Source: a virus (Duplodnaviria > Heunggongvirae > Uroviricota > Caudoviricetes). From it: 5,945 bases of DNA. The notes beneath the pieces are model-generated. The model ran no database searches, was not told where the DNA came from, and saw nothing but the letters and a program-made list of their open reading frames with translations. The stretch spans positions 1-5,945 of IMG/VR virus record IMGVR_UViG_3300022692_000031. The stretch is one strand, 5' to 3'. Shown here piece after piece: positions 2,806 through 5,945 of the stretch. How positions within the stretch are numbered: the first letter of the stretch is position 1; every line of letters begins with the position of its first letter. Both the position numbers and the translations under genes were made by a program.

Positions 2806-2810
2806 CTTTG

Positions 2811-2838
2811 TTGATTTTTCCCGAATCTGTGGTAAATT
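2811..2838 (+). promoter_or_regulatory. Candidate late promoter PR' (-35 TTGATT, 16-bp spacer, extended -10 TGgTAAATT)
   Basis: Sigma-70-like hexamers read directly, immediately downstream of the Q stop and about 50 nt upstream of the terminator at 2888-2909. This is the expected PR'-tR' arrangement of lambdoid late control. Confidence 0.35.
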
Positions 2839-2887
2839 TGCCCTAACGATGGGCGTTTTATGCCTGACGTTAGAAGATTTTTTACAC

Positions 2888-2909
2888 CCCGCCGCCTGGC
2901 GGGTTTTTT
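2888..2909 (+). terminator. Rho-independent terminator, candidate tR'
   Basis: Stem CCCGCC, loop GCCT, stem GGCGGG, followed by TTTTTTAT. Confidence 0.6.
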
Positions 2910-3031
2910 ATGACTGAAATCGCGTCAGTACAGTAAACGCGCTGGTGGCGGTGAATACCGGTCTTTCAGCTTGCTGGCTTTTTTGACAAGAGTTATTGGT
3001 GTGTCACGTTAACCGAAAAAGGGAAAAAGAC

Positions 3032-3229
3032 ATGCTGAAACAGCAGGATATGACAGAAACTGCCAGAGCAGTGTTTAATGAATTAAGCGTCACCGAACCG
3101 GCGACAGTCGGGGAGATTGCGCAGAATACTTACCTTTCACGCGAACGCTGCCAGTTAATACTGACCCAGCTTGTTATGGCGGGTCTGGCAGACTATCAGT
3201 TCGGTTGTTACAGACGCCTTCGGTCCTGA
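3032..3229 (+). CDS. Small (65 aa) putative winged-helix DNA-binding protein, PapI/FaeA-like pattern
   Basis: ATG at 3032 preceded by a purine-rich AAGGGAAAAAG. The segment TVGEIAQNTYLSRERCQLILTQLVMAGL resembles the helix-turn-helix region of the small PapI/FaeA family (compare [28 protein letters not shown]) from memory. Confidence 0.5.
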   Translation: MLKQQDMTETARAVFNELSVTEPATVGEIAQNTYLSRERCQLILTQLVMAGLADYQFGCYRRLRS

Positions 3230-3240
3230 AGGCTTTTTTA
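3216..3240 (+). terminator. Strong Rho-independent terminator overlapping the stop codon of the small ORF
   Basis: Perfect stem GCCTTC/GAAGGC with loop GGTCCT, followed by TTTTTTATTT. The TGA stop at 3227-3229 lies inside the hairpin. Confidence 0.65.
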
Positions 3241-3379: not shown

Positions 3380-4438
3380 ATGCTTAACACTGTAAAAATA
3401 TCCAGTTGTGAGTTAATCAACGCCGACTGCCTGGAATTTATCCGGTCGTTACCCGAAAATTCTGTTGACCTGATAGTCACGGATCCGCCGTACTTTAAAG
3501 TGAAGCCTGAGGGCTGGGATAACCAGTGGAAGGGCGACGATGATTACCTGAAGTGGCTGGACCAGTGTCTTGCGCAGTTCTGGCGGGTGCTGAAACCTGC
3601 CGGAAGTCTTTACCTGTTCTGTGGCCATCGCCTGGCATCTGACATTGAAATCATGATGCGTGAACGCTTCAGTGTGCTGAACCATATTATCTGGGCGAAG
3701 CCGTCCGGACGCTGGAACGGGTGCAACAAGGAAAGCCTGAGGGCGTATTTCCCCGCCACAGAGCGCATTCTGTTCGCGGAACATTATCAGGGGCCGTATC
3801 GTCCGAAAGATGCCGGGTATGAGGCGAAGGGCAGGGCACTGAAACAGCATGTGATGGCACCGCTGATTGCTTACTTTCGTGATGCGCGTGCTGCCCTGGG
3901 GATAACGGCAAAACAGATTGCTGATGCCACAGGAAAGAAAAACATGGTGTCGCACTGGTTCAGTGCCAGTCAGTGGCAGTTACCGAACGAAAGCGATTAT
4001 CTGAAATTACAGGTGCTGTTTGCCCGGGTGGCAGAAGAGAAGCATCAGCGGGGTGAACTGGAAAAGCCCCACCACCAGCTGCTGGAGACGTATACTTCAC
4101 TGAACCGGCAGTATGCGGAACTGCAGAGTGAATATAAGCATCTGCGGCGGTATTTTGGCGTGACGGCGCAGGTGCCGTACACGGATGTGTGGACGCATAA
4201 ACCGGTGCAGTACTATCCCGGGAAACATCCGTGCGAAAAACCGGCAGAAATGCTGCAGCAGATAATCAGCGCGAGCAGTCGTCCGGGTGACCTGGTTGCA
4301 GATTTTTTCATGGGGTCGGGTTCGACAGTCAAAGCCGCGATGGCGCTGGGGCGGCGTGCAACTGGCGTTGAGCTGGAGACTGAACGTTTTGAGCAGACGG
4401 TCAGAGAAGTTCAGGATTTAGTCAGTCAGAACGGATGA
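3380..4438 (+). CDS. DNA methyltransferase, beta-class amino-methyltransferase (probably N6-adenine), with no restriction partner in the window
   Basis: 352-aa ORF. The catalytic motif IV DPPY (LIVTDPPYF) is near the N-terminus and the SAM-binding motif I FxGxG (DFFMGSGST) near the C-terminus, the beta-class order seen in CcrM, HinfI and RsrI methyltransferases. Confidence 0.9.
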   Translation: MLNTVKISSCELINADCLEFIRSLPENSVDLIVTDPPYFKVKPEGWDNQWKGDDDYLKWLDQCLAQFWRVLKPAGSLYLFCGHRLASDIEIMMRERFSVLNHIIWAKPSGRWNGCNKESLRAYFPATERILFAEHYQGPYRPKDAGYEAKGRALKQHVMAPLIAYFRDARAALGITAKQIADATGKKNMVSHWFSASQWQLPNESDYLKLQVLFARVAEEKHQRGELEKPHHQLLETYTSLNRQYAELQSEYKHLRRYFGVTAQVPYTDVWTHKPVQYYPGKHPCEKPAEMLQQIISASSRPGDLVADFFMGSGSTVKAAMALGRRATGVELETERFEQTVREVQDLVSQNG

Positions 4439-4478
4439 TATTGCAGGATTAGTTACGTACCGTTATTATCCTGCGCCC

Positions 4479-4554
4479 GGCCCTTTAGCTCAGTGGTGAG
4501 AGCGAGCGACTCATAATCGCCAGGTCGCTGGTTCAAATCCAGCAAGGGCCACCA
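4479..4554 (+). tRNA. tRNA with anticodon CAU, ileX/ileZ-like (tRNA-Ile2, lysidine type; an anticodon-only caller would say Met)
   Basis: Manually folded 76-nt cloverleaf: acceptor GGCCCTT/AAGGGCC, D-stem GCTC/GAGC, anticodon loop CTCATAA, T-arm GCTGG-TTCAAAT-CCAGC, encoded CCA. The overall sequence closely resembles E. coli ileX as I remember it. Confidence 0.85.
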
Positions 4555-4563
4555 TATCACATA

Positions 4564-4640
4564 CCGCCATTAGCTCATCGGGATAGAGCGCCAGCCTTCG
4601 AAGCTGGCTGCGCGGGGTTCGAGTCCTCGATGGCGGTCCA
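4564..4640 (+). tRNA. tRNA-Arg, anticodon UCG
   Basis: Manually folded 77-nt cloverleaf: acceptor CCGCCAT/ATGGCGG, D-stem GCTC/GAGC, anticodon stem CCAGC/GCTGG with loop CTTCGAA, T-arm CGGGG-TTCGAGT-CCTCG, encoded CCA. The 5' C1 is unusual but pairs with G72. Confidence 0.75.
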
Positions 4641-4696
4641 TTATCTGCATTATGCGTTGTTGGTTCTGATGAGTGAATCATTGTCTTTTGAGCAAC

Positions 4697-4718
4697 AGGC
4701 TATCATATAAGATAGCCT
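4697..4718 (+). other. Perfect 8-bp inverted repeat AGGCTATC-ATATAA-GATAGCCT downstream of the tRNAs
   Basis: Read directly from the sequence. No immediate T-tract; it may be a processing or regulatory hairpin or a protein-binding dyad. Confidence 0.3.
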
Positions 4719-4918
4719 CAGACTTCCTTGTTTATTCTCGCCGGATGCTTCGTAGATATTTGCAGGCATCTGTATGCAGGGGTATTATTGCGGCATATAT
4801 CATCCGGAAAAATAAAAACTACATGCTGATCCGGAGATGATAGTTACAAGTCCTCCCGGATCCCGCATATTTACTATATTTTATAGATAATTGTTCTTGT
4901 TAATATGGAGATGGATAA

Positions 4919-5347
4919 ATGTATTGCCGTGCTGTACCGGTTCTTGTTTTGATATTAGCCAGTCTGACAACTGGCTGCACAAAAGATGTATCGACAAATA
5001 ATCATGATGCTTCTCTGTATCACTCAGATAAATTAATAAAGTCGCAAAATTTGAGCTCATCGGAACGTACCCCTGATGCCAGTGAAGAAATCCGGCAGTA
5101 TGCCATTCAGGTCAGGAAAGCCATAGAAGAACAGTTAAAGGATGCGAGTAAGTATTCAGGAAAAGAGTGTTCACTGAGAATGTATATGGCCCCGAATGGT
5201 CTTCTGCTACAGGTTAAAAGAGAAAGCGGTGATCCCGATTTATGTCGTGAAGCGATGAATGCAGTAAAGAATGCTGATATACCATCACCACCGTCTTCAG
5301 GAGTATATAAAGCATTTAGAAATGGCGTGCTGGATTTTAAACTCTGA
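4919..5347 (+). CDS. Putative secreted lipoprotein homologous to TolA C-terminal domain III
   Basis: 142-aa ORF with GGAG 8 nt upstream of the ATG. The N-terminus has a hydrophobic signal (AVPVLVLILASL) followed by LTTGC, a lipobox-like cysteine. Residues about 60-142 align at roughly 50 percent identity with my recollection of the E. coli TolA C-terminus (YAGQIKSAIESKFYDASSYAGKTCTLRIKLAPDGMLLDIKPEGGDPALCQAALAAAKLAKIPKPPSQAVYEVFKNAPLDFKP), including both cysteines. Confidence 0.8.
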   Translation: MYCRAVPVLVLILASLTTGCTKDVSTNNHDASLYHSDKLIKSQNLSSSERTPDASEEIRQYAIQVRKAIEEQLKDASKYSGKECSLRMYMAPNGLLLQVKRESGDPDLCREAMNAVKNADIPSPPSSGVYKAFRNGVLDFKL

Positions 5348-5350
5348 CAG

Positions 5351-5380
5351 GGGGAGAAGATTTTCTCCTGTCCTGATGAT
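5351..5380 (+). terminator. Weak terminator-like hairpin just after the lipoprotein stop
   Basis: Stem GGAGAA, loop GATT, stem TTCTCC, followed by TGTCCTGATGATTTTGG. Imperfect T-tract. Confidence 0.3.
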
Positions 5381-5636
5381 TTTGGGGCGCTGGAAAGATA
5401 TTGTGCTGTGAAGTGTTAAATCCCTCACAATTCAGTAAGTTGACAGTTGCCTGTCAGACTGAGCATTTGTTAAAAAAATTTCGCATGGTGAATCCCCCTG
5501 TGCGGAGGGGCGACTGGTGAACGGTATGATCTCTTTGATGATCGTAAGCGAGAATACGCGGGTTTGGTGTCACCGGGCTGAACTCACCGGGAGGCACCCG
5601 GCACCATGCTCATGGTGATACAGAAATGCGGCTTCA

Positions 5637-5660
5637 GCCCCTCTCCGGAGGGGCTTTCTT
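5637..5660 (+). terminator. Rho-independent terminator for + strand transcripts
   Basis: Stem GCCCCTC, loop TCCG, stem GAGGGGC, followed by TTTCTT. Confidence 0.5.
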
Positions 5661-5666
5661 ATGGAC

Positions 5667-5695
5667 AAAAAAAGCCCGCGCTGGGAGACGCGGGC
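5667..5695 (-). terminator. Rho-independent terminator for - strand transcripts
   Basis: On the - strand this reads GCCCGCG-TCTCCCAG-CGCGGGC followed by seven T. With the + strand terminator 7 bp to its left it forms a convergent pair. Confidence 0.55.
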
Positions 5696-5814
5696 GGCAA
5701 GGAATAAACAATAAAACGTGAAGTAATACTTCAACTGGCGAATAATACCCGACAGTAATCACTCTGCGCAATAGCGTGGCCTTTTTCGAATTGCGGGCTG
5801 TAGTCTCCCTTCTG

Positions 5815-5945
5815 CCGGGTGTCCTGGTTGCAGATTTCTTCATGGGGTAGGGTTCGGCAGTTAAAGCAGCGATGGCGCTGGGGCGTCGTGCAACTGGCGT
5901 TGAGCTGGATACCGGGCGTTTTGAACAGACTGCGCAGGAAATCAG
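5815..5945 (+). pseudogene. Decayed 3' fragment of a second DNA methyltransferase gene (runs past the window edge)
   Basis: About 130 nt are roughly 85-90 percent identical to the 3' end of the intact methyltransferase gene (4283-4418). In the equivalent frame, motif I reads FMG-stop-GSA because TAG at 5848-5850 replaces TCG; there is no upstream coding sequence or start. Confidence 0.75.

Follow-up and report, generated by a model that had tools for sequence, protein, structure and literature searches.

The tRNA gene cluster ileZ-argN(-argO) has long been known and is routinely annotated in lambdoid and Stx prophages. A rare-codon rationale for the presence of ileZ-argN-argO in Stx phages was reportedly put forward by Schmidt et al. 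in 1997 and by Plunkett et al. in 1999. The gene names used here follow the annotation of AP012534.1. More generally, tRNA genes just 3' of Q are common in lambdoid phages, where they have been read as codon supplements for the whole phage (PMC3636060). Our full-text literature search returned nothing on ileZ/argN/argO, on ileZ together with Shiga toxin, or on the rare-codon tRNAs of 933W, and a paper on the stx flanking region leaves the tRNAs unmentioned. Here we compare with these systems a window of 5,945 nucleotides (the whole stretch of DNA analysed), in which two such tRNA genes lie 5' of a gene encoding a 142-aa lipoprotein (positions 4919–5347, + strand). To the known cluster, the window adds only a variant with a dead argO and another cargo. 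In our opinion, the adjacency most probably reflects ordinary phage mosaicism, which has placed an AT-rich accessory gene in the toxin slot of Stx phages, rather than a dedicated codon-supply pair.

The window represents the beginning of the late region in a lambdoid E. coli prophage whose architecture is that of Stx phages. The Q antiterminator gene (1984–2805; PF03589, E 3.8e-51) is followed, about 80 nt 3' of its end, by a candidate late terminator tR' (2888–2910, + strand) consisting of a terminator-like GC hairpin and a T-run; all DNA downstream of this point, tRNAs included, would belong to the Q-dependent late transcript. In phage mEp460, the tRNA cluster comes directly after the point matching the candidate tR'. 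In the window, unlike in Stx2a_F765, Q and the tRNAs are separated by a methylase gene of full length and by a small winged-helix ORF. The methylase gene (3380–4438, + strand) encodes an N6/N4 DNA methyltransferase (PF01555, E 5.3e-44; PADLOC MTase_II, E 2e-164), and its final ~110 nt are the left-hand homology in common with Stx2 phages, the homology to Stx2a_F765 beginning at position 4328. The methylase 3' end also carries the left copy (4283–4398, + strand) of a 116-nt direct repeat (repeat search, family D1) that brackets the tRNA–tolA module; the right copy (5815–5930, + strand), 90% identical to the left one, is a pseudogene fragment that RefSeq labels 'DNA methyltransferase, internal stop, missing N-terminus'. 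On its right-hand side, the cargo slot is bounded by an STnc100-family RNA element (5454–5666, + strand; Rfam RF02076, 172.4 bits, E 3.9e-40), which carries its own terminator at 5636–5655. A promoter scan of the window gave fewer sigma-70-like sites than shuffled sequence (2 vs 3.9), and we claim no promoter of its own for the tolA-like gene.

The first tRNA gene, ileZ (4479–4554, + strand), encodes a tRNA-Ile2 with the anticodon CAU and an encoded CCA; the second, argN (4564–4640, + strand), encodes a tRNA-Arg with the anticodon UCG, again with an encoded CCA. Both are called by ARAGORN and score 72.5 and 55.1 bits, respectively, with the Rfam tRNA model, whose gathering score is 29. The anticodons proposed in an earlier note on this DNA, which was made from the letters alone, hold up: neither other anticodons nor a pseudogene call came out of these scans, and RefSeq, on identical DNA, annotates a tRNA-Ile and a tRNA-Arg with no pseudogene mark on either. 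The minimum-energy fold of argN is a cloverleaf. The description of the CAU tRNA as ileX-like was equally sound, as ileZ shares 68 of 76 bases with K-12 ileX, compared with 54 of 77 with metT and 49 of 77 with the initiator gene metZ, which rules out an elongator or initiator Met tRNA. More specifically, ileZ has in common with ileX the CAU anticodon, an identical anticodon loop, the pairs C4-G69 and C5-G68, the discriminator A73 and the encoded CCA; it differs by being phage-borne and multi-copy and by eight substitutions, which include an A27-C43 mismatch where the anticodon stem of ileX is topped by a G-U pair. The C4-G69 and C5-G68 pairs, which can be read directly off the acceptor stem (5' GGCCCUU ... 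AAGGGCC 3'), are said, after work by Ikeuchi et al. in 2005, to be determinants by which TilS tells tRNA-Ile2 from tRNA-Met, and ileZ is expected to read AUA once the host TilS has converted C34 to lysidine. argN reads CGA and CGG by wobble.

Judged by their sequence, which is 99–100% identical to that in Stx2 phages, these two genes are the ileZ and argN of the Stx-phage cluster, in line with the comparison drawn in the earlier note. ileZ is the same base for base in the window, Stx2a_F765 and mEp460, a single D-loop base distinguishes argN from its Stx2a_F765 counterpart, and the 9-nt gap between the two genes is also found in Stx2a_F765. The window further shares with 933W and Stx2a_F765 the methylase 3' end upstream and the position of the tRNAs, after Q and before the cargo slot and STnc100. 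In contrast to these phages, argO, the gene for a tRNA-Arg with the anticodon UCU, is a non-functional stump in the window (4654–4695, + strand; delimited by alignments to intact argO). What the stump retains is the acceptor strand of the 5' side, GCGTTGT, and a decayed version of the anticodon arm, with TTT in place of TCT; it is devoid of the T arm and the 3' acceptor strand. Identity to argO amounts to 30 of 43 positions in the 5' part and 16 of 35 in the 3' part. It yields no tRNA call with ARAGORN, nor with Rfam at E ≤ 1, and no cloverleaf in the fold prediction. An intact argO would read AGA and AGG; here, the gene appears to have been destroyed by decay of its 5' 42 nt and replacement of its 3' half. 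The earlier note had suggested that a third tRNA was lost or lay elsewhere. The stump speaks for loss; as for a location elsewhere, ARAGORN and Rfam detected no third tRNA in the window, and none was detected within 12 kb on either side in two related prophages, so that, with the fold prediction, a hidden third tRNA is ruled out.

The stump is immediately followed by a perfect 8-bp palindromic hairpin seen in the fold (AGGCTATC-ATATAA-GATAGCCT, 4696–4717), which is placed where the Stx-phage homology stops, the BLAST homology to Stx2a_F765 (L001) ending at 4695. Two homology blocks flank the cargo: window 4328–4695 matches L001 2929–3297 at 95%, and window 5425–5826 matches L001 4708–5085 at 73% identity. 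The cargo between both blocks is non-homologous, with 729 bp containing the TolA-III gene in the window versus 1,410 bp containing the 3' half of argO and stxAB in Stx2a_F765, where the same STnc100 element lies 3' of stx2B (L001 4737–4942). The TolA-III gene thus fills the slot of stxAB, from the tRNA cluster to STnc100. This slot would accommodate interchangeable payloads, stxAB or the TolA-III lipoprotein, and such a cassette exchange is relevant to the origin of Stx phages and to the loss of their toxin genes.

A second point of comparison is mEp460_ev081 (LR597641), a type present in 359 complete E. coli genomes, which shares with the window the DUF968-RusA-Q module (87% nucleotide identity), ileZ, and a TolA-III lipoprotein gene located 3' of the tRNAs and 5' of the lysis genes. 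The two lipoproteins are 67% identical in amino acids and their genes about 81% identical in nucleotides over the alignable 375 nt. The differences are a dead argN and an intact argO in mEp460, the position of STnc100, which lies there between the tRNAs and tolA instead of 3' of tolA, the absence of the methylase, and the presence of a second TolA-III lipoprotein paralogue, which follows the first. In a tblastn search of sequenced phages with the TolA-like protein, mEp460 was the sole record found.

The earlier note had assigned the tRNAs the task of supplying the lipoprotein gene, on account of its codons. Its figures are borne out by an in-frame count (4919–5347), which gives four ATA, one ATT and one ATC for Ile and, among eight Arg codons, three AGA, one AGG and one CGG; the three CGT codons had been left out, and CGA does not occur. 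As a host yardstick we used 40 core genes of E. coli HY220605, a strain with a chromosome that matches window 4400–5945 at 100% identity. In these genes, ATA represents 6.7% of the Ile codons, AGA+AGG 3.3% and CGA+CGG 13% of the Arg codons, and against them the lipoprotein gene is enriched in ATA (P=2.7e-4) and AGA+AGG (P=7.5e-5, binomial). Against seven low-GC3 genes of the same strain, mostly from the waa LPS-core cluster and with no tRNA neighbour (ATA 29% of Ile, AGA+AGG 38% of Arg), there is no enrichment (P=0.06 for ATA, P=0.36 for AGA+AGG). Likewise, given the gene's own third-base usage, A being 44% of A+T+C in four-fold families, four ATA out of six have a P of 0.25. The rare codons of the lipoprotein gene (GC 41.5%, GC3 34%) are what an AT-rich composition predicts, and the proposed supply role is not supported by this comparison.

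In the 28 other prophage genes examined, ATA makes up 21% of the Ile codons, and the Arg codons comprise 24% AGA+AGG and 27% CGA+CGG. These genes hold 59 of the 63 ATA, 91 of the 95 AGA/AGG and 102 of the 103 CGA/CGG codons, which leaves the lipoprotein gene with 4/63, 4/95 and 1/103, respectively. Because AUA and CGA/CGG are two to three times commoner in the prophage than in the host core genes, the tRNAs would add decoding capacity for these codons to the benefit of the phage genes as a whole. Within the lipoprotein gene, ileZ matches the four ATA and argN the one CGG, and the four AGA/AGG have no phage tRNA. Note that the ATA share of the lipoprotein gene is nominally high relative to the other prophage genes (P=0.02, n=6), and that it varies between alleles, with 4/6 in the window type and 3/12 in the other allele. 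In stx2A, the classic cargo of the slot, ATA accounts for a striking 15 of 20 Ile codons, which leaves room for a degree of selection in favour of ATA, or of tolerance towards it, in the cargo adjoining ileZ.

The distribution of the gene and of the tRNAs across genomes bears on the same point. The TolA-III lipoprotein gene occurs in 897 of 5,426 complete E. coli genomes. In about 448 complete genomes, no tRNA lies closer than 4 kb to the homologous gene; in about 359, it is accompanied by ileZ and argO (the mEp460 type), and in about 120 by ileZ and argN (the window type). A similar picture is seen in the IMG/VR loci, where the tRNA set, named by anticodon, is none in 27, cat+tct in 21, cat+tcg in 21 and all three in one, and where one nucleotide allele (54 loci) occurs both with and without tRNAs. 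Since the window-type allele is linked to ileZ-argN at a fixed distance in 21/21 loci, the window-type module travels as a unit. This tRNA–tolA module is joined to at least three Q modules: the 273-aa Q of the window, DUF1133 (L003) and a 221-aa Q (L004). Of the 5,426 genomes, 2,084 contain the ileZ-argN pair itself, which is mostly found beside other cargo and can occur as many as 12 times in one genome. A further 284 phage records, mostly Stx-converting, match the query only over its tRNA-bearing part, window 4400–4661, 112 of them at ≥99%. Among GTDB representative genomes, with a method that catches close relatives alone, only one locus was found, in Shigella flexneri.

Taken as phage mosaicism, which we regard as the likely explanation, these data could be accounted for as follows. 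ileZ and argN are the leading pair of genes in the widespread ileZ-argN-argO cluster, which is situated just 3' of Q and the terminator, and the conserved flanks would act as homology for cassette exchange, bringing varied cargo beside the same tRNAs. The tRNAs would be transcribed from the Q-dependent late promoter and might bring an actual translational benefit. The TolA-like gene would profit only through its four AUA codons, and its AGA/AGG codons would rely on the host argU and argW. A weaker, novel reading is that the loss of argO, by leaving AGA/AGG to the scarce host argU and argW, would throttle lipoprotein expression; the dead argO is the would-be reader of four of the nine rare Ile and Arg codons (ATA, AGA, AGG, CGG) of the gene. 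Richness in rare codons beside phage tRNAs calls for caution, as it probably arises for the most part because accessory genes of high AT content end up at a hot spot of recombination.

A first alternative, which we consider unlikely, is that the tRNA genes persist mainly as recombination linkers for swaps of late cargo, with little translational effect and an incidental decoding benefit. The homology blocks shared with Stx phages do break off inside the tRNA cluster or at its edge, to start again at STnc100, and the ileZ-argN pair has also been counted 7,537 times across 3,058 genomes, as might be expected of such linkers. Moreover, tRNA losses differ by lineage (argO in the window, argN in mEp460, all in the Rac-like type), which suggests weak selection on each single tRNA. 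However, not one base of ileZ differs between the window, Stx2a_F765 and mEp460, in contrast to the rapid decay of the dead tRNAs beside it, and this speaks for purifying selection acting on ileZ in its capacity as a tRNA. Prophage codon usage, too, fits the three anticodons.

That the tRNAs are kept beside the lipoprotein gene because its expression needs them, as proposed for stx, seems to us quite improbable. The four ATA readable by ileZ, the significant enrichment over host core genes, the constant linkage of the window-type allele to ileZ-argN and the ATA-rich stx2A in the same slot all speak in its favour. However, the gene offers argN no more than one codon, a CGG that is missing from the lipoprotein-gene allele shared by six IMG/VR loci, and argO, the reader of four rare codons, is dead. 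Furthermore, the enrichment vanishes against composition-matched controls, the gene holds 4–6% of the ATA and AGA/AGG and about 1% of the CGA/CGG codons of the prophage, and the host possesses its own ileX. Finally, no tRNA lies closer than 4 kb to roughly half of the homologues, and one and the same nucleotide allele occurs both with tRNAs and without them.

Work on other phages has led to the idea that phage tRNAs stand in for host tRNAs lost through depletion or cleavage, whether in the course of infection or through anticodon nucleases, regardless of the codons of the neighbouring gene; this counter-defence role is very unlikely to explain the present pair. Nothing in the window lends it direct support; the UCG anticodon of argN is, for its part, not known from any K-12 tRNA-Arg. 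Against this role, there is no linked nuclease or defence gene, PADLOC matches only the methylase, and the anticodon set corresponds to the classical rare-codon trio and to the codon bias of the prophage.

The cargo itself deserves closer description. The lipoprotein gene, in which a GGAG lies 8 nt 5' of the ATG, encodes a signal peptide, a lipobox LTTGC (Cys20), a linker of ~33 residues and a copy of TolA domain III (residues 54–141; PF06519, E 5.7e-23, 81.4 bits for a Pfam cut-off of 25). The end of the signal peptide fits the PROSITE-style lipobox pattern, the translation reading MYCRAVPVLVLILASLTTG followed by C, with IIIG before C in the other allele and VAG before C in the paralogue; the signal peptide and the invariant Cys are those expected of an SPase II substrate, and acylation is predicted. 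The TolA domain III structures 1s62/3qdp are matched at E 1.6e-25, and residues 54–141 align without gaps to residues 333–420 of K-12 TolA, with 45 of 88 amino acids identical and both disulfide cysteines conserved. The fold assignment is safe because of this 51% identity to a solved domain (PDB codes: 1S62, 3QDP and 1TOL). In contrast to E. coli TolA, the protein has neither the transmembrane anchor nor the long helical domain II, in place of which it has the lipoprotein signal peptide and the short linker, and its gene is only 56% identical to tolA in nucleotides, with a GC3 of 34% compared to 47%. With the equivalog model NF007065, it scores 103 bits for a cut-off of 213 and matches only positions 297–386 of the 387 in the profile; it passes TIGR02794 on score, but through domain III alone. 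A full-length TolA orthologue is thus ruled out by the 142-aa length and the NF007065 score, and RefSeq misnames it as 'tolA: cell envelope integrity protein TolA', given the missing anchor and domain II and the score below the cut-off.

The lipoprotein, which is of the outer-membrane type, is the product of an accessory gene of high AT content, a 'moron'. Lipoprotein morons are known from temperate and lytic coliphages, as exemplified by T5 Llp, phi80/N15 Cor and lambda Bor, which block entry routes. Like them, the TolA-III protein is a small lipoprotein encoded by an AT-rich accessory gene, here in a lambdoid late region, and by analogy it plausibly acts in the envelope; it has no sequence relationship to them, and PADLOC returns no match for it or its paralogue. 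The family is common in E. coli and conserved, and corresponds to PHROG 5772, for which the function is given as unknown. A literature search for phage-encoded TolA-like proteins found nothing relevant, the sole mention of TolA in PMC10326431 referring to chromosomal TolA. We tentatively propose that this lipoprotein, and not the tRNA adjacency, is the interesting object of the locus: it could be a molecular decoy, or it could retune Tol-Pal and vesiculation. As a decoy, it might bind the TolB N-terminus, g3p of filamentous phages or the translocation domains of group A colicins, and the lysogen would then be protected from Tol-dependent colicins and Ff-type phages. The other allele carries a pseudogene label in RefSeq, but a degraded gene is ruled out, as the 142-aa ORF is intact at all loci examined (80/80 in IMG/VR); with a dN/dS of 0.33 relative to the second allele, the TolA-III lipoprotein appears to be under purifying selection.

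The window (5.9 kb) is the nin/late-regulatory region of an E. coli lambdoid prophage and carries, on the plus strand, a DUF968 gene (551–1600), rusA (1613–1987), the Q antiterminator gene (1984–2805, PF03589), a winged-helix ORF of 65 aa (3032–3229; PHROG 331, no assigned function) with its own terminator (3216–3233), an N6/N4 DNA methyltransferase gene (3380–4438), two tRNA genes and a 142-codon, tolA-like ORF (4919–5347). The earlier note had described the tRNAs as having the anticodons CAU and UCG, the former being ileX-like, and had proposed that they supply rare codons of the adjoining lipoprotein gene. The first part is borne out by ARAGORN, by the Rfam tRNA covariance model, which scores tRNA(cat) (4479–4554) at 72.5 bits and tRNA-Arg(tcg) (4564–4640) at 55.1 bits (gathering score 29), and by RefSeq, which annotates tRNA-Ile and tRNA-Arg on the same DNA with a pseudogene flag on neither. 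The refuting outcomes named in the note, other anticodons or a second tRNA scored as a pseudogene, thus did not arise. The CAU tRNA shares 68 of 76 bases with K-12 ileX, as against 54/77 with elongator metT and 49/77 with initiator metZ, and direct reading shows that it retains C4–G69 and C5–G68, the acceptor-stem pairs through which TilS reportedly selects tRNA-Ile2. Aligned with Stx2a_F765 (AP012534.1), an Stx2a phage locus whose record carries the names ileZ, argN and argO, the first tRNA is identical to ileZ and the second differs from argN by one D-loop base; the pair is literally that carried by Stx-converting phages. Matches confined to the tRNA-bearing part of the query (4400–4661) come from 284 records of the phage collection, mostly Stx-converting phages, 112 of them at 99% identity or more. 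The tRNA identification is right, and the ileZ–argN element is already known and annotated.

The suspicion that a third tRNA had been lost also proved correct. In Stx2a_F765, argO, whose UCU anticodon reads AGA/AGG, begins 14 nt past argN; at this site the window retains the argO 5′ acceptor strand (GCGTTGT), after which both the D arm and the anticodon arm have decayed (identity is 30 of 43 positions, with TTT replacing TCT at the anticodon position). The similarity is lost past 4695 (16/35), and the place of the T arm is taken by a hairpin. Neither ARAGORN nor Rfam at E ≤ 1 calls a tRNA at the remnant, and no further tRNA was found within 12 kb to each side in two related prophages; argO thus survives in the window as a decayed 5′ stump. 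The reciprocal decay is seen in phage mEp460 (2759–2858 of its locus) and 359 E. coli genomes, where ileZ and argO are intact, whereas argN has kept its acceptor strands but is scrambled between them. All three tRNAs are intact upstream of the tolA-like gene in one IMG/VR locus, which probably represents the ancestral state. The hairpin (4696–4717) is a perfect palindrome, AGGCTATC-ATATAA-GATAGCCT, located exactly at the end of the argO/Stx-phage homology; it has no T-tail and is therefore not an obvious terminator, and it might serve as a site of recombination or of protein binding.

The idea that the tRNAs serve the adjoining gene fared less well. The reported codon counts of the tolA-like gene are right (ATA 4, ATT 1, ATC 1; AGA 3, AGG 1, CGG 1, CGA 0), except that three CGT had gone unmentioned. 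Compared to host core genes (40 CDS of E. coli HY220605: ATA 6.7% of Ile; AGA+AGG 3.3% and CGA+CGG 13% of Arg), the shares of ATA (4/6) and AGA+AGG (4/8) are clearly enriched (binomial P = 2.7e-4 and 7.5e-5), that of CGA+CGG being 1/8. However, the gene is AT-rich (41.5% GC, 34% GC3), and against seven AT-rich, low-GC3 genes of that genome, most of them waa LPS-core and without a nearby tRNA (ATA 29%, AGA+AGG 38%), both shares are unremarkable (P = 0.06 and 0.36), as is ATA given the gene's own third-base composition (P = 0.25). Since AT-rich cargo is rich in ATA and AGA through composition alone, no dedicated pairing is needed to bring a rare-codon gene beside tRNAs. The tolA-like gene nominally exceeds the other prophage genes in ATA share (P = 0.02, n = 6). 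The 28 other prophage CDS examined (ATA 21%, AGA+AGG 24%, CGA+CGG 27%) hold 59 of the 63 ATA, 91 of the 95 AGA/AGG and 102 of the 103 CGA/CGG codons, so that the demand for these tRNAs comes overwhelmingly from other phage genes. The anticodons also fit the neighbor's codons poorly: argN has a single CGG to read, which is itself absent from the allele common to six IMG/VR loci, and, with argO dead, no phage tRNA reads the four AGA/AGG codons. Note that in stx2A (3422–4381 of the Stx2a_F765 locus), which occupies the same slot, 15 of 20 Ile codons are ATA, far above the AT-rich host genes; stx2A looks like a better case for the classical codon-supply argument than the tolA-like gene does.

The distribution of the gene points the same way. 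Homologues are present in 897 of 5,426 genomes and form two allele groups, about 120 being window-like and about 774 having about 81% nucleotide identity. In complete E. coli genomes, the gene lies behind ileZ–argN in about 120 cases (window type), behind ileZ, dead argN and argO in 359 (mEp460 type) and in a Rac-like setting in 448; in the Rac-like loci examined, no tRNA was found within 4 kb of it. The IMG/VR picture is independently the same. The window-type allele has cat+tcg at a fixed distance in 21/21 loci, in keeping with a window-type module that always travels as one unit, whereas the other allele is accompanied by cat+tct in 21 loci, all three tRNAs in 1, cat only in 2, tct only in 2 and none in 27 (flanks were too short to judge in 6 more). 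A single nucleotide allele, represented by 54 IMG/VR loci, has tRNAs beside it in some of them and none in others. Conversely, the ileZ–argN pair is found in 2,084 genomes, with as many as 12 places per genome and usually with other cargo. Four rare codons (ATA40, AGA87, AGA101 and ATA121) are common to both alleles and are therefore older than the present tRNA context. Altogether, a functional link between the tRNAs and the adjoining gene is unsupported, and supply of this particular neighbor retains a low probability, in its favor being the joint travel of the window-type module, the ATA richness of stx2A and the nominal ATA excess over the other prophage genes.

Most likely, the late operon start in this phage group has the tRNA cluster as a regular fixture, a placement that we infer from the hairpin at 2888–2903 right after Q, a candidate tR′ that is directly followed by the tRNAs in mEp460. 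The tRNAs would add AUA and CGA/CGG capacity for phage genes generally, plus AGA/AGG where argO is intact; this role fits the prophage-wide codon bias and agrees with how tRNAs that follow Q in lambdoid phages are generally viewed, as whole-phage codon capacity (PMC3636060). Across lineages ileZ is strictly identical, beside dead neighbors that decay fast, which suggests selection on ileZ itself as a tRNA. The region just 3′ of Q (2806–3233) has a stretch that by eye resembles a promoter, terminator-like hairpins at 2839–2855 and 2888–2903 and, farther on, the winged-helix ORF; compared with mEp460, this ORF and the methylase are an insertion.

A hot spot of cargo exchange probably lies between the conserved sequences of the tRNAs and STnc100. 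Homology with the Stx2a phage comprises a left block (4328–4695, 95%: methylase 3′ end, ileZ, argN and argO stump) and a right block (5425–5826, 73%: STnc100 and beyond). The DNA between the blocks measures 729 bp in the window, where it contains the tolA-like gene, and 1,410 bp in the Stx phage, where it contains the remainder of argO together with stxAB. The STnc100-family RNA element (5454–5666, plus strand, 172 bits) follows the tolA-like gene just as its counterpart (4737–4942 in Stx2a_F765) directly follows stx2B; given these shared flanks, the tolA-like gene occupies the stx slot. Two related prophages with the same module have three to four more tandem STnc100 copies about 1.5 kb downstream (15027–15735 in L003, which has DUF1133; 15028–16007 in L004, which has a 221-aa Q), and STnc100 looks like a repeated, conserved late-region linker. 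Back-to-back intrinsic terminators lie at its end (5636–5655, plus; 5695–5674, minus). The minus-strand one occupies the position of AsxR, an antisense sRNA next to STnc100 in the Stx2a phage, although the window has no AsxR match at E ≤ 1.

The 1.5-kb tRNA–tolA–STnc100 module is bracketed by a 116-nt direct repeat of the methylase 3′ end (4283–4398 and 5815–5930, 90% identical), whose second copy belongs to a pseudogene fragment (plus strand, from about 5815); the repeat is a footprint of the recombination by which the module inserted, and it offers a substrate to loop-out deletion. The chromosome of HY220605 is 100% identical to 4400–5945, many Shiga-toxin-producing isolates are 99.5–99.7% identical, and at least 80% of this segment is present in 119 of 5,426 complete genomes; none of the complete E. 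coli genomes of the collection has the whole window at >93% identity. Q modules differ among strains carrying the tRNA-bearing module: that of the window resembles mEp460 (87%), but HY220605 has another Q-region gene (DUF1133). This is the usual lambdoid mosaic.

The cargo itself is the sole part that might repay experiments. The ORF starts with a signal peptide closing in the lipobox LTTG|C (Cys20), followed by a linker of ~33 residues and a domain whose alignment with E. coli TolA 333–420, i.e. domain III, is free of gaps (45 of 88 residues identical; PF06519, 81 bits; PDB 1S62/3QDP, E about 1e-25), both disulfide cysteines being kept. Unlike TolA, the protein has neither membrane anchor nor domain II, and it scores 103 bits with the NCBIfam TolA equivalog (cut-off 213); it is therefore not TolA, despite its RefSeq name. 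The family is PHROG 5772, with no assigned function; PADLOC gave no match, and a literature search found no paper on TolA-III lipoproteins. All 80 IMG/VR copies are intact and dN/dS between the window-like and the other allele is 0.33, which indicates a working gene. Thr at position +2 of a lipoprotein directs sorting to the outer membrane, and this protein has Thr there. TolB, g3p and the translocation domains of colicins dock on TolA domain III, and the PDB matches include such complexes (1TOL, 2X9A and 3QDR). On this basis, a periplasm-facing, lipid-anchored domain III could compete with TolA for its partners, and could thereby block Tol-dependent import (group A colicins, filamentous phages) or alter Tol–Pal function.

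RefSeq calls the second allele a pseudogene 'missing N-terminus' in three loci (L005, L006 and L007, 3947–4375), where the 142-aa lipoprotein ORF is intact, and names these genes 'tolA' though domain III alone is present; both labels look like artefacts of comparison with real TolA. Directly downstream in mEp460-type and Rac-like loci lies a second, more divergent TolA-III lipoprotein paralogue (124 aa, WP_001348108.1, PHROG 5772; 4547–4921 in L005 and 4512–4907 in the mEp460 locus), these loci having a tandem TolA-III lipoprotein pair ahead of the holin gene.
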